Below are positions 30,054 through 41,468 of a DNA stretch of 64,000 nucleotides, in pieces (the first letter of the stretch is position 1; each line of letters begins with the position of its first letter). The DNA comes from Flaccisagitta enflata (taxonomy: Eukaryota). The notes under the pieces were generated by a model. It was given only the letters and a program-made list of their open reading frames with translations, searched no databases and had not been told where the DNA came from. The stretch covers positions 47,058,001 through 47,122,000 of the forward strand of contig OZ231126.1 in NCBI GenBank assembly GCA_965153355.1, written 5' to 3'. Position numbers and translations under genes: made by a program.

Positions 30054-33044
30054 CGACACCCACCCGCCTTGAATTATAGTCCGCGTCGGAATGATATTCC
30101 GTCGCGGACAAAAAGCTTAAAAACAACAGTCCTCGACTGAAATCTATTTGGTGTCCGACCCGGCTACTCAGTCTGACCCGGCTACTCAGTCTGACCCGGC
30201 TACTCAGTCTGACCCGGCTACTCAGTCTGACCCGGCTACTCAGTCTGACCCGGCTACTCAGTCTGACCCGGCTACTCAGTCTGACCCGGCTACTCAGTCT
30301 GACCCGGCTACTCAGTCTGACCCGGCTACTCAGTCTGATCCGGCTACTCAGTCTGACCCGGCTACTCAGTCTGACCCGGCTACTCAGTCTGACCCGGCTA
30401 CTCAGTCTGACCCGGCTACTCAGTCTGACCCGGCTACTCAGTCTGACCCGGCTACTCAGTCTGACCCGGCTACTCAGTCTGACCCGGCTACTCAGTCTGA
30501 CCCGGCTACTCAGTCTGACCCGGCTACTCAGTCTGACCCGGCTTCTCAGTCTGACCCGGCTTCTCAGTCTGACCCGGCTACTCAGTCTGACCCGGCTACT
30601 CAGTCTGACCCGGCTACTCAGTCTGACCCGGCTACTCAGTCTGACCCGGCTACTCAGTCTGACCCGGCTACTCAGTCTGACCCGGCTACTCAGTCTGACC
30701 CGGCTACTCAGTCTGACCCGGCTACTCAGTCTGACCCGGCTACTCAGTCTGACCCGGCTACCAATTGCATACCTTAAAGTCCATGATGGCATACCTTGAA
30801 GTTCATGGTGGCATACCTTGCAGCCTATGATGGCATACCTTGAAGCCCATGATGGCATTCCTTGAAGTCCATGAAAGCATACCTTATAATCCAACAAAAA
30901 AAAACAAAAAATTTTCAATTTTTCAAAAAAAAAAAATTTCCAAAAAAAAATTAAATTTTTTCTTAAAAGAAAAAAAATATTTAAAAAAAAAAAAGAAAAA
31001 ATATTTTCAAAAAAGAAAAAATTTTCAAAAATTTTTCAAAAATTTTTTTCAAAAAAAAAAATAAAAAAAAGTTCTTTTTTTTTTTAAATTTTGAAGTCCA
31101 AGAAATAATGTTACTAGATACATCATAAATACCCTTATATTTTCTTAACCAATACTCAGAATTTACTAAAATCTTGCAGGGGAGCTTTAATTGATGCAAT
31201 GAACCTTCACAACAAGTTTGAACAACATTGGTGAACCTTTACTACCATTCCCCTACGTAAATTGCACAAGTCTAGGAATTAATATTATTAGCAAAATACC
31301 CTTATATCTTCTAAACCAATACTCAGAATTATCTGAAATCTTGCAGGGGAGCTTTAATTGATGCAATAAACCATCACAACAAGTTTGAACAACATTGGTG
31401 AACCTTTATTACCCTTCCCCTATGTAAATTGCACTAGTCCAGGAATTAATATTACTACAAAAATAATAGGCAAAGGGTATTAAATATTTATGAATGTTGT
31501 TAAAAGTTGGTACACAGGTTAGTAACGCCCTTAAAATAATACTGACCAAGTTTCATCAACATCTGAGTTGTGGTTCTCAAGTTTTTAAGGGTTGACACAA
31601 ACGACGACGACTAACTACACGATCAAGGCTATGTTATAGTCCTCGACGTAAACTGATCGTCGAGGACAAAAACTTACACAGTGCAAAATGGCCAAAATGA
31701 CCAAAATGACTTTAAATAACTTAAAACAACTTAAAATGACGTAAAACGATGTAAAAAGCTAAGTATGACAAACCGACAGACGGACAGATCGGGTCATAGA
31801 GTAGCTTGCACGCGACTTAAAAGGTCTAACTGACCTACGAACTTACGGATGGGCAGACGGAGGAGATGTATTAAAGAATCTGAAATGGCCGAGTAGCTAG
31901 GCGAATACGTGCGCCTGATTGAGTGCTCGACGGACAGACATGATCTTTTAAAAGACGTGCTTTGTTGCACGAAAAAATCAAACAGACATCAAGAAAAGAA
32001 AAGACGATTTGTAAACGAAATACCTGCCGCCGTATGCAGAAGAGGATAATAATATTCCTTCATCTTGGCCATTTCGTTGATTTCCCGAGTTCGATTCCAA
32101 CCATCGGCCGACCTCGTTTCCCAATCGGCGACGACGGACTCGAAGGCACTCAACGCCGAAGACTCGCGACTCGCACACTCCTCGCTCTTCGAAGGCGCCG
32201 AAGACGTGGATGAAGAGAGGCTGCCGATGCAGGACGACAAAGCGCGAAGCAGAGGATGATGAGTCTCCACGTCGCATTTGTTCTCGCAAAAAGGTAAATG
32301 ACAAGTGGATGTAGATTCAGTCGGGGGACGAGGGGAAACGGAGCGGGATGACGAGGAGGATATCGCGATGACTTCGGGAACGGCGGCGGGGTTGGCGTCG
32401 AATGTCATCGACTTGGCGGCGCCGTCACTAGACGCTAATGAAGGAATGTCCGAAGTCATAGGCGTGGACGGTGGTGTCGAGACACTGCCTCTATTTGAGT
32501 TTAAAAGCGAGGAGAAGATGTTATAAGGAACTGGGGAGGCGGTCGAAGACTCCGATCGCGATCCGCCGGCGTCGGCGCTATCAATCGCGGAATCGGCCGT
32601 CGTCAATTGCAAGAGACGTCTCTTTCTCGGAGGTGGTTGATCCAACGCCTCCACTTCCTCTGCGGGAACCACTAGAGTCGGTTTTTGGTCGACGTAATGA
32701 CCGAACAACGGTTTTTGGTCGACAAAATTACTTACCAACTGTGGTTTTGGGTCGACGAAATCCCGCGATGAAGAGGAAGAGTCTTCAGAGGGGAGAGAGA
32801 GTCGATCACCAAACCCTCGAGTATCATTCGCATCCTCTTCCGGTGGATCGACGATGACGCAACTTTCATCGGGATCCTGAATGTCCGAAGTGTCTGAAAG
32901 TTCGATCGTTTCGAGTTCCAGGGTTTGTGCCCCAGTCATAGGAGTCATGGTAACGGGCGTCACATTCCCGTCGCATGAAACGGACGCGATAGAATTAGTT
33001 TGGGCAAAATCCGGCACCGGCGCCGATGTTGGCGTCGATTCCAT
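22458..33044 (-). CDS. Ankyrin-repeat protein with disordered N-terminus and C-terminal coiled coil (8 exons)
   Basis: Phase-consistent exons 33044-32024, 27610-27466, 27332-27131, 26756-26396, 26091-25918, 24986-24815, 24465-24300, 22547-22458. Motifs [58 protein letters not shown]; heptad-rich tail ending ...KLDGSR*. Confidence 0.85.
22818..23362. mobile_element. Short interspersed repeat with GGGCAGCGGCCCC inverted ends and internal 20-bp tandem repeats
   Basis: Unit GGGCCTCAAGGCTGGGATTT repeated; related copies near 12060-12190, 40790-41300 and 61250-61450. Confidence 0.75.
27775..30114 (+). mobile_element. Two head-to-tail family A Helentron/DINE-like elements (27775-29081, 29077-30114)
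   Basis: Each starts aaaaatctga..cagtatctgggtccgcgacgga and ends with the hairpin gtccgcgtcggaatgatattccgtcgcggac plus A5; the copies share the A5 junction. Confidence 0.8.
30110..31672 (+). mobile_element. Family B Helentron/DINE-like element containing an 18-bp minisatellite
   Basis: Starts aaaagctt..agtcctcgac, ends with the hairpin agtcctcgacgtaaactgatcgtcgaggac plus A5; 21-bp and ~120-bp internal repeats. Confidence 0.7.
30153..30761. repeat. 18-bp minisatellite GTCTGACCCGGCTACTCA, about 34 near-perfect copies
   Basis: Directly visible; only a few variant units; no spacers. Confidence 0.98.
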
Positions 33045-33333
33045 GCTCTGTGAAAAAGATGTGGAATCATAAATCACCGAGTACAGAGTGTCGTGATCAC
33101 TGCGATGTAAAAACTGAATGTGACCATTGTGTAAAATATCTAAGGCCAAAGAACATAAGCTCAAGTGTAAAAATTAAGCTTGGACGGATTGTTTGCGTGC
33201 TTAACATGACTGGACGGAAGACACTAATGTGAGGCTAGAAAACTAATGAGTCAAGATTGTGTCAGTAAAAGACATCGCCGCGGCTCCGATTTCGTTTGGC
33301 GAGGCGCCACCATCCAAACTAATGGCGAAGGTT

Positions 33334-39266: not shown

Positions 39267-41468
39267 TTACTGCGCGAGAGAGTTGTTGCCTCCAACGCCG
39301 CGCTCGCAAACGTTGCCGGACATTCTTTTAACTTCTTCCATGTATTTGCTCCAAGCGTCGTCTTTTCCGTCTTTCGGTTTCTCCTGTTACAGAGCAGAAA
39401 TTCAATTTGATGAAAATGAGGTAATATTCATTAATTCGACAAATCCAATATCGCACAAAAGTTTCAATTCCATTAATCAGTAATCATTATGCAATGCCGA
39501 ACCTCTGGTCTTTTTGGTTTTATAACCATTCCCGTCTTCAAAGCTTTTCCACCCACGCGTTTATTCGGCTAAAAATGCAAAGTAAATTTGAAGAAATCCA
39601 CATGAGAACACTCAAACAAGCTTCCAATTTCCATGAACAACGAAGTTAAATCAAAGCAACGGAATGTTTTTACTCACCCCACTTTGCAATGGAGTCCCTT
39701 GCTTCGACTGCTCCTTCTGTTTGTGAAAGGATAAGAATACAAATGTATTAAGATAACCACACAGCAACTGATAATTGAAAGTGCTCTCCTTTTTTCAAAA
39801 TTCCTTCGGGATCATAGTCAAAATTCATCTTGAAGATATGACAAAAAGGTAAGTTCGGCGATTTTACAAAGAAATAAAAGAGAAAGGTAAGTTTTGCAAA
39901 CTTCGACGCTTATTTTGAGCACCTTCTAGTTGGAATATTGAAAAAAGGAAAGCACTTTCAATTAACAGTTTTTTCTGCAGATTTCAAATCTGCCGTCAAA
40001 ACAGATATTCAAGCACTTTGAAATTTTTGGTTCCCCATAGAGGTAGGTTGTACCAAGGGTGAGACGCGGAAAGCTTAAAGTAGGATTTGTGTAGCAAAAC
40101 TGATCTTAACAGGAGCTCAAGACAACCCCACAGCATAAAGTGCATGTGGAATGCCAAATTTTTCACTTTTTGTCATTTAGGTACAAGCTAAGCAACACTG
40201 ATTTGATAACTCAGCAATCACTAACTACAATATGTAAATGATTTATACCTTTCGTTGTTCGATAACCCCTTGGGCGAATTCAGCAAAGCTTCCATCGTTG
40301 GCAAATCCAACGGCCGCAGCAGGATCAATATCATCCCGGGTAAAGTCCTAATAAGCAACAAGAAATGGTCAAATGGATCAAATTATTTTCACGGTGTGAC
40401 CCAACCGAGGCCTCTTTGTCAGCTTCAAAACCAAATCCAACAAAGGCATCCTTCTCTCCTCCTTTTCCTCCACTGTCTCCATCCCCCTCTTCCTCTACTT
40501 ATTGTCCTTCCTCCACTTTCTCTCTCCCCCTCTTCCTCCACTTTCTCTCTCCCCCTCTTCCTCCACTTTCTCTCTCCCCCTCTTCCTCCACTTTCTCCCC
40601 CTCTTCCTCCACTTTCTCTCTCCCCTCTTCCTCCACTTTCTCTCTCTCCCCTCTTACTCCACTTTCTCTCTCTCCCCCTCTTCCTCCACTTTCTTTCACT
40701 CCCCTCTTCCTCCACTTTCTCTCTCTCCCCCTCTTCCTCCACTTTCTCTCTCTCCCCTATTCTTCCTTTTTCTCTAGCCCTCTGAAGGGTCGATGACCTC
40801 TTCCACACATATGATTTTCCTTTTCTTCTTCCTCCTACGTCTCTCAAATCCCAGTCTCCTCCACTTCCAGTCTCAGGCCCAAATCCCAGTCTTGAGCTCC
40901 AAATCCCTCCCTCTCAATCCACCTCACCTAACAATCTAGCCTGGGCCAGATTTCAGTCTCTCAACTCTGCCTCAACGTCAAAATCTCAGCCAAGAGGCCT
41001 AAATCTCAGCCTCCAGGCTAGGATTTTGGCCTTGAGGCTAGGATTTGGGCCTTGAGACTGGGATTTGGGCCTCAAGACTGGGATTTGGGCCTTGAGACTG
41101 GAATTTGGGCCTCGAGACTGGAATTTGGGCCTCGAGACTGGGATTTGAGGGACGGAGGAGGAGGAGGAAAATCCCCCATATGTGTGAAAGCATAGGTCAT
41201 CGACCCCTTCGGGGCCGCTGCCCTGCTCCCCCCTCAACTTCAGCCACAACCTACTTAGGCAGGGCACGGGTACCGCTGACCATCTAACGCTTTTGCGACT
41301 ATTCTCTCTACCCCCTATTCCTCCACTTTCTCTCTTCCCCTCTTCCTACACTTTCTCTCTCCCCCTCTTCCTCCATTTTCTCACTTTCTCTCTCCCCCTC
41401 TTCCTCCACTTTCTCTCAATCTTCACTTTCTCACTTTCTCTCTCTCTCTCTTCCTCCACACTCTCTCT

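Follow-up and report, generated by a model that had tools for sequence, protein, structure and literature searches.

We analyzed a stretch of 64,000 nucleotides (nt) from the chaetognath Flaccisagitta enflata (assembly GCA_965153355.1, contig OZ231126.1, positions 47,058,001 to 47,122,000; hereafter the window, with coordinates counted from its first letter), in which four genes follow one another on the minus strand. At the junction between the second gene, TIMMDC1, and the third, kizuna (KIZ), the TIMMDC1 transcript’s poly(A) tail starts on the acceptor G of KIZ. Therefore, the spacer at this junction (junction B), the sole one with a readable tail, consists of a 3′ untranslated region (UTR) and a 5′ UTR, with no intercistronic DNA. 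We consider it likely that the cluster is a spacerless chaetognath operon whose transcription starts at a promoter farther upstream and whose RNA is resolved by spliced-leader (SL) trans-splicing. A preliminary description of this DNA had proposed an SL-resolved operon, and this proposal is largely supported by the leader found at the TIMMDC1 acceptor, by arrays of leader genes in the genome, and by the position of the TIMMDC1 poly(A) site. In addition, several retroelement families end in a pyrimidine tract, CAG, and poly(A), with no gene behind. The operon is one more example, of an expected kind, in a phylum with documented operons; the new part is a junction with no gap and no AAUAAA, together with the similar ends of retroelements.

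Organization of the gene cluster

The order of the genes is probably ValRS-like, zinc-finger/TRIR-like, TIMMDC1, KIZ, and ankyrin-like, the first of these lying upstream of the window. Within the window, all on the minus strand, are the 3′ part of a multi-CCCH zinc-finger, proline-rich, TRIR-like gene (39267..64000), which runs on upstream, an intronless TIMMDC1-like open reading frame (ORF) of 369 amino acids (aa) (37387..38496), the four-exon KIZ gene (33334..37237), whose open model has 840 aa and a stop codon, and an ankyrin-like gene (22486..33044), the last in the cluster. Re-reading the sequence returned the stops and start codons of these genes where the preliminary description had placed them, as well as the same spacers of 770, 149, and 289 nt. 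Four genes on the same strand have, taken alone, a chance of 1 in 8, and the real signal is the presence of three spacers of less than 1 kb among introns of several kb. The long intron reported earlier as 18 kb measures 18,052 nt and belongs to the zinc-finger/TRIR-like gene.

Acceptor A (38567..38591, minus strand) is composed of a pyrimidine tract and CAG; acceptor B, predicted for KIZ, lies at 37291..37315 (minus strand), 53 nt before the ATG; and a third trans-splice site, acceptor C, is predicted at 33048, 3 nt before the ATG of the ankyrin-like gene. Of the acceptor positions given previously, 37291 and 33048 were exact, and the G of the CCGCAG before TIMMDC1, which had been put at about 38563, is in fact 38567. 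The pyrimidine contents of acceptors A, B, and C (0.82, 0.59, and 0.73) all fall within the range of eight cis acceptors of the same genes (0.50 to 0.91).

Transcript ends at the junctions

RNA data came from four of the eight runs listed, aligned to positions 34780 to 40400, a region that spans acceptors A and B; a raw-read run (X8) was discarded, as its 87 reads, all partial at 90 to 95%, belonged to another organism. In two of the three informative runs, the 3′ end of a leader was found attached precisely at the acceptor of TIMMDC1 (38567|38566): the X1 and X4 contigs leave the genome at 38566 and continue with nine letters that form the 3′ end common to SL2, SL3, and SL4, according to the reference leader sequences of PMC2481426 (Table 3). 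In the third run, X3, this place was not covered by contigs. TIMMDC1 hence has a 5′ UTR of 70 nt, starting at 38566.

At the other end of TIMMDC1, an X4 contig carries a 21-nt poly(A) directly after G 37291, where acceptor B ends; the genomic sequence that follows is not rich in A (8 of the next 20 bases). This contig has a depth of 29.6 and reaches 980 nt into the TIMMDC1 ORF, and no second TIMMDC1 poly(A) site was found among the RNA pieces listed. The TIMMDC1 3′ UTR thus has 96 nt (37291..37386, minus strand), and since the poly(A) site and the KIZ acceptor are the same, no room is left for a promoter between the two mRNAs. The earlier remark that 149 nt leaves little room for a 3′ UTR, a promoter, and a 5′ UTR agrees with this coincidence of both sites, seen in one run. 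At junction A, contigs of the zinc-finger 3′ UTR reach 38613 in X1, 38658 in X3, and 38566 in X4, where six unaligned letters follow; this last end is suggestive of poly(A).

We found neither AATAAA nor ATTAAA in the three internal 3′ UTRs, namely, those of the zinc-finger/TRIR-like gene (38567..39266, 700 nt, supported by RNA contigs), TIMMDC1, and KIZ (33048..33333, 286 nt, ending in acceptor C), all on the minus strand. An AATAAA is located at 22482-22477, just past what is putatively the final stop codon in the cluster, that of the ankyrin-like gene. The RNA also contained GT-AG joints for five introns of the gene models (the last three of the zinc-finger gene and introns 1 and 2 of KIZ), and 8 of 11 contigs of the TIMMDC1 family with full-length proteins were 1,191 to 1,334 nt long, near the 1,276 nt of a monocistron.

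Genes for the spliced leaders

We then looked for leader sequences in the genome, which comprises 794 Mb in nine contigs. The SL3 core (PMC2481426, Table 3) gave 263 matches and SL1 followed by GT gave 147, with none for either control (reversed, in the case of SL3). SL3 and SL1 genes alternate in tandem units of ∼735 bp, with a GT donor after each (GTGAGT and GTAAGT), and a short motif ∼40 nt past the donors is shared by the SL1 and SL3 copies. Such arrays lie on C3, C4, C5, and C8 (e.g., L012 and L013). From their sequence, they are most simply read as SL RNA gene arrays, and the published chaetognath leaders in them mark the genome as that of a chaetognath. No canonical Sm site (AU4-6G) was found in the 110 nt inspected, Rfam gave no match in the leader arrays or in the window, and the predicted fold of the SL RNA was not distinctive (z = −1.3). 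The genome thus contains leaders followed by a GT donor, as well as, in the window, a cluster of co-directional genes at short distances from one another.

Retroelements ending in an acceptor

Leader sequences were also found at the heads of retroelements. We examined 64 SL3-bearing loci, taken from 100 of the 263 matches with the arrays left out. Two of the 64 were SL RNA gene copies, and 25 had a sense-strand match to an ORF of a long interspersed nuclear element (LINE) within 4 kb; others resemble processed pseudogenes. As to the 3′ ends, the pattern Y8-N-CAG-A12 had 88 matches genome-wide, versus 11 for the reversed pattern, 40 with CAC and CAT together, and 30 with CCG, CGG, and CTG together in place of CAG. 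The first 30 loci formed 12 groups, with AATAAA within 80 nt in 2 of the 30, and a reverse transcriptase (RT) ORF preceded the CAG tail in 5 of 18 extended loci (4 above the Pfam cut-off).

Both features come together in a full-length LINE of 7.4 kb (L142:156-7570), which has an SL3 head, ORF1, an endonuclease, an RT, and a CAG-A19 end. Of the 25 loci in this family, 23 extend to the end, and 22 of the 23 stop at CAG; at least 4 A follow in 11. A second, retroposed family of ∼1.35 kb (L085-L104; 20 loci, some overlapping and one with no visible end) showed a pyrimidine tract, CAG, and A3-12, with no AATAAA, at all 15 of its distinct 3′ ends. Its heads carry SL3 in five copies and SL1 in one, and the copies have short target-site duplications. 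An ORF of 358 to 376 aa is present in three copies, with no Pfam match, and the subfamilies suggest that the family propagates.

RT elements at L143 and L145 (also L119 and L139) likewise end in CAG-poly(A); the C terminus of the L143/L145 type resembles what we take to be a CRE-clade restriction-like endonuclease. L044 has, in front of a LINE, two instances of a leader that runs directly into an A-run, the product expected if the leader were spliced onto the acceptor tail of an upstream copy. L075 consists of a leader and 39 nt ending in AG, followed by A13. L009 and L108 hold a leader-headed, apparently intronless retrocopy with an open frame of 367 aa, presumably of a La-like gene, and no clear poly(A) end was seen in L108. 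A whole-genome search found no retrocopies of TIMMDC1, KIZ, or the ankyrin-like gene.

Since these acceptor tails have no downstream gene to serve, they favor an acceptor-directed 3′ end, although they cannot show which enzyme cuts.

Resolution of the operon and alternatives

We propose that transcription would run through the whole cluster from one upstream promoter and that, at each acceptor, the SL small nuclear ribonucleoprotein would supply the RNA downstream with a capped leader. Each internal 3′ UTR would extend as far as the AG of the acceptor that follows, with poly(A) added onto that G, likewise at the other junctions. In the second step of trans-splicing, the upstream RNA ending in AG would be freed, then debranched and polyadenylated. 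Granted an operon, we lean slightly toward the acceptor itself being the 3′-end signal, by way of this release. We suggest more tentatively, and would not yet count on it, that the trans-splice acceptor may be a general 3′-end signal here, working without AAUAAA, and that several LINE and non-autonomous families may have adopted both halves of the process. In such retroelements, the leader would provide the capped 5′ end and the element’s own acceptor the 3′ end, and they might be excised from read-through transcripts like the cistrons of an operon.

Several points weigh against the proposed operon and its mode of resolution. The RNA consists of assembled marine-metatranscriptome contigs, which are strandless, have no read counts, and may derive from a sister species, and both leader-bearing runs, X1 and X4, are samples from a single study. 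The poly(A) tail on AG is known from a single X4 contig, and the TIMMDC1 contig ends 2 nt short of the site in X1 (37293) and at 37328 in X3. The leader expected at the acceptors by the preliminary description appeared in RNA at TIMMDC1; at KIZ, none was seen among the RNA ends listed, at a depth of 2 to 4, and an X4 contig begins near the KIZ acceptor, at 37253, with five unaligned letters. None of the RNA pieces listed bridges a junction, and no polycistronic precursor was seen among them. Acceptor C lies outside the RNA-tested stretch. Regarding the retroelements, the 88 matches to the tail pattern cluster in families and are hence non-independent, and a LINE with endonuclease and RT in the 18-kb intron (44560..48700, minus strand, with an SL1-like head at 48700-48677) ends in AATAAA and (ATTC)n, so that the CAG end is not universal.

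Ordinary cleavage is the alternative that survives best, and we regard it as unlikely but deserving attention: the operon would be the same, and the upstream end would be cut at or near the AG by the cleavage/polyadenylation machinery, directed there by U2AF or by U-rich signals of a non-canonical kind. A given transcript would then yield one of the two mRNAs, upstream or downstream, but not both, a possibility discussed for the SL1-type operons of Caenorhabditis elegans. This option, raised in PMC1488885, is in line with the U-rich tracts ahead of the sites, with the X1 end 2 nt short, a hint of microheterogeneity, and with a TIMMDC1 contig depth that exceeds the depth at the KIZ 5′ end ∼10-fold, which is a poor measure. 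However, the tail sits on the G of AG and not on CA, AAUAAA is absent, and a full YAG acceptor is found at the terminal base in independent retroelement families; it is also improbable that a separate cut would fall on one bond again and again, as argued in PMC1488885.

It is improbable that the genes do not form a true operon, being instead packed monocistronic genes with short outrons, transcribed from promoters in the 3′ UTR or coding region of the neighbor, or an operon of a hybrid kind, with promoters inside it. Most trans-spliced genes of Paraspadella gotoi are indeed non-operonic (PMC12460157), the 700-nt UTR could house a promoter, and no polycistronic contig is among the RNA pieces listed. 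Yet the TIMMDC1 mRNA reaches the KIZ acceptor, meaning that transcription crosses this acceptor, with no terminator signal, and a KIZ promoter would need the TIMMDC1 coding sequence or the 96-nt UTR as its site. Finally, the AG-poly(A) molecules are very unlikely to be oligo-adenylated by-products of trans-splicing headed for decay, with functional mRNAs ending elsewhere: released outrons are normally degraded and the tail was seen on a single contig, but that contig is deep and extends far into the ORF, no other poly(A) site is listed, and RNAs that start with a leader and finish in AG-poly(A) have been retrotransposed many times.

Comparison with known systems

The occurrence of SL-resolved operons in chaetognaths, which the preliminary description took as established, is in print (PMC2481426 and PMC12460157). 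In P. gotoi, 18% of genes are in such operons (PMC12460157), and in Spadella cephaloptera the poly(A) site of the one mapped operon, RPS14-PCNA, is separated from the acceptor by 3 nt (PMC2481426). The unit described here shares with chaetognath operons the leader family, the association of unrelated housekeeping genes, and tight packing. It differs from the Spadella operon by the 0-nt gap at the single junction read and by the lack of AAUAAA in three UTRs, and it contrasts with chaetognath operons in its size of ∼116 kb and its 18-kb intron full of transposons. The words "polyadenyl" and "intercistronic" do not occur in the main text of PMC12460157.

In the intercistron-less operons of Ciona intestinalis, poly(A) is added on the G of the AG of the downstream acceptor, AAUAAA is absent in 16 of 18 cases, and trans-splicing was proposed as a possible maker of the 3′ end (PMC1488885). 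Our unit resembles them in having poly(A) on the acceptor G (junction B, one contig) and an AAUAAA-free junction (0/3 internal UTRs with the signal). Unlike Ciona, it belongs to another phylum, with an unrelated leader, and 19 cases were mapped there versus one full and one partial case here. The passages of PMC1488885 cited here report no retroelements with acceptor-type ends. By analogy, the unit would be a member of the chaetognath operons that works like a Ciona operon.

With the SL1-type operons of C. elegans, the cluster shares the absence of intercistronic DNA and of an operon-specific leader. In SL2-type operons of C. elegans, ∼100 nt of intercistronic DNA follow the AAUAAA-directed site; at junction B, we found no intercistronic DNA past an AAUAAA site. 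The two types, of which SL2 has the intervening sequence, are summarized in PMC12582326. The three characterized SL1-type cases carry AAUAAA, unlike the UTRs here (PMC1488885 and PMC12582326).

Retrocopies tagged with SL are documented in dinoflagellates, where leader remnants persist in the genome at the 5′ end of retroposed RNAs (PMC12014239). Our elements are alike in this respect, but here many are LINEs (25/64), and several families have a splice acceptor and a poly(A) end. We found no LINEs with both a leader head and an acceptor tail in the literature searched at title and abstract level, which included few subscription journals; PMC4558846 was rejected as a precedent, as it concerns a long terminal repeat (LTR) competing for a trans-acceptor.

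PMC1488885 left open how the upstream 3′ end arises if one bond serves as both poly(A) site and trans-splice site, and we found no later resolution in the literature searched at title level. The acceptor-ending retroelements represent a natural experiment on this question, with an acceptor that has no evident job except ending an RNA, and they offer short, many-copy substrates for testing the mechanism. If our proposal is true, an animal would have an mRNA 3′ end that the spliceosome makes, and LINEs would have a new means of setting their two ends.

Gene identities, extent of the unit, and neighboring features

The names TIMMDC1 and KIZ given previously are supported. The TIMMDC1 ORF matches Pfam Tim17 with an E value of 2.5e-4, below the cut-off, and falls with TIMMDC1 clusters in the ESM Atlas at 0.94; no PDB relative was found for protein P0001. 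An upstream ORF of five codons (38486-38503, minus strand) overlaps the TIMMDC1 start; its ATG is out of frame and lies 7 nt before that of TIMMDC1. Among the relatives of KIZ exon 1, 5 of 10 looked-up clusters bear the name kizuna; for KIZ, the leads from the ESM Atlas were all coiled coils, and word-index searches with KIZ exon 1 and with one zinc-finger exon found no relatives. The other two names stand less firmly. "TRIR" reflects what we presume to be a motif likeness at the end of the zinc-finger gene, and "ankyrin" is a weak match to Pfam Ank_2 (E = 0.051). The full exon model of the ankyrin-like gene was rejected for its six internal stops, and the end of this partly modeled gene is therefore tentative. 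A single metagenome match to its 5′ end was dropped as a chance, bacterial-looking contig with no similarity to the window.

The frame of the zinc-finger/TRIR-like gene is open across the 18,052-nt intron to the TAA at 39267 (579 aa, six exons), and the gene has its probable start upstream of the window, at the ATG L105:6659. In its 3′ UTR, the contigs of X1 and X3 lack 82 nt (39062-39143), bounded by non-canonical ends, which probably reflects a deletion allele. Farther upstream on the same strand, at L105:9641-7144, lies a class I tRNA ligase gene (Pfam Anticodon_1, 3e-23; tRNA-synt_1, 1e-7), which we take from its motifs to be ValRS-like. Its stop is 484 nt before the probable ATG of the zinc-finger gene. 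It is probably a fifth member of the operon, and the unit would thus begin farther upstream than first described; this membership is less sure because the 484-nt spacer contains two ATTAAA and weak acceptor candidates only.

Downstream, a plus-strand gene (1825-20266) of low complexity, in which three exons gave no Pfam match, converges on the ankyrin-like gene. Between its exons lies an inverted partial duplicate of 35009-31842 (7524..10867, plus strand), ∼97% identical over the unique part, which holds the KIZ 3′ end, the spacer, acceptor C, and exon 1 of the ankyrin-like gene. The spacer of the duplicate was rejected as evidence of conservation, being no more conserved than its exons (277/286 identical). 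The duplicate adjoins an RT-like fragment and is in the sense direction of the plus-strand gene, and judging from this arrangement, the copied acceptor C could cut the transcripts of its host. Lastly, the 18-kb intron of the zinc-finger/TRIR-like gene contains a Bel/Pao-type LTR retrotransposon (49037-59564, plus strand), the 692-bp LTRs of which are 98% identical.

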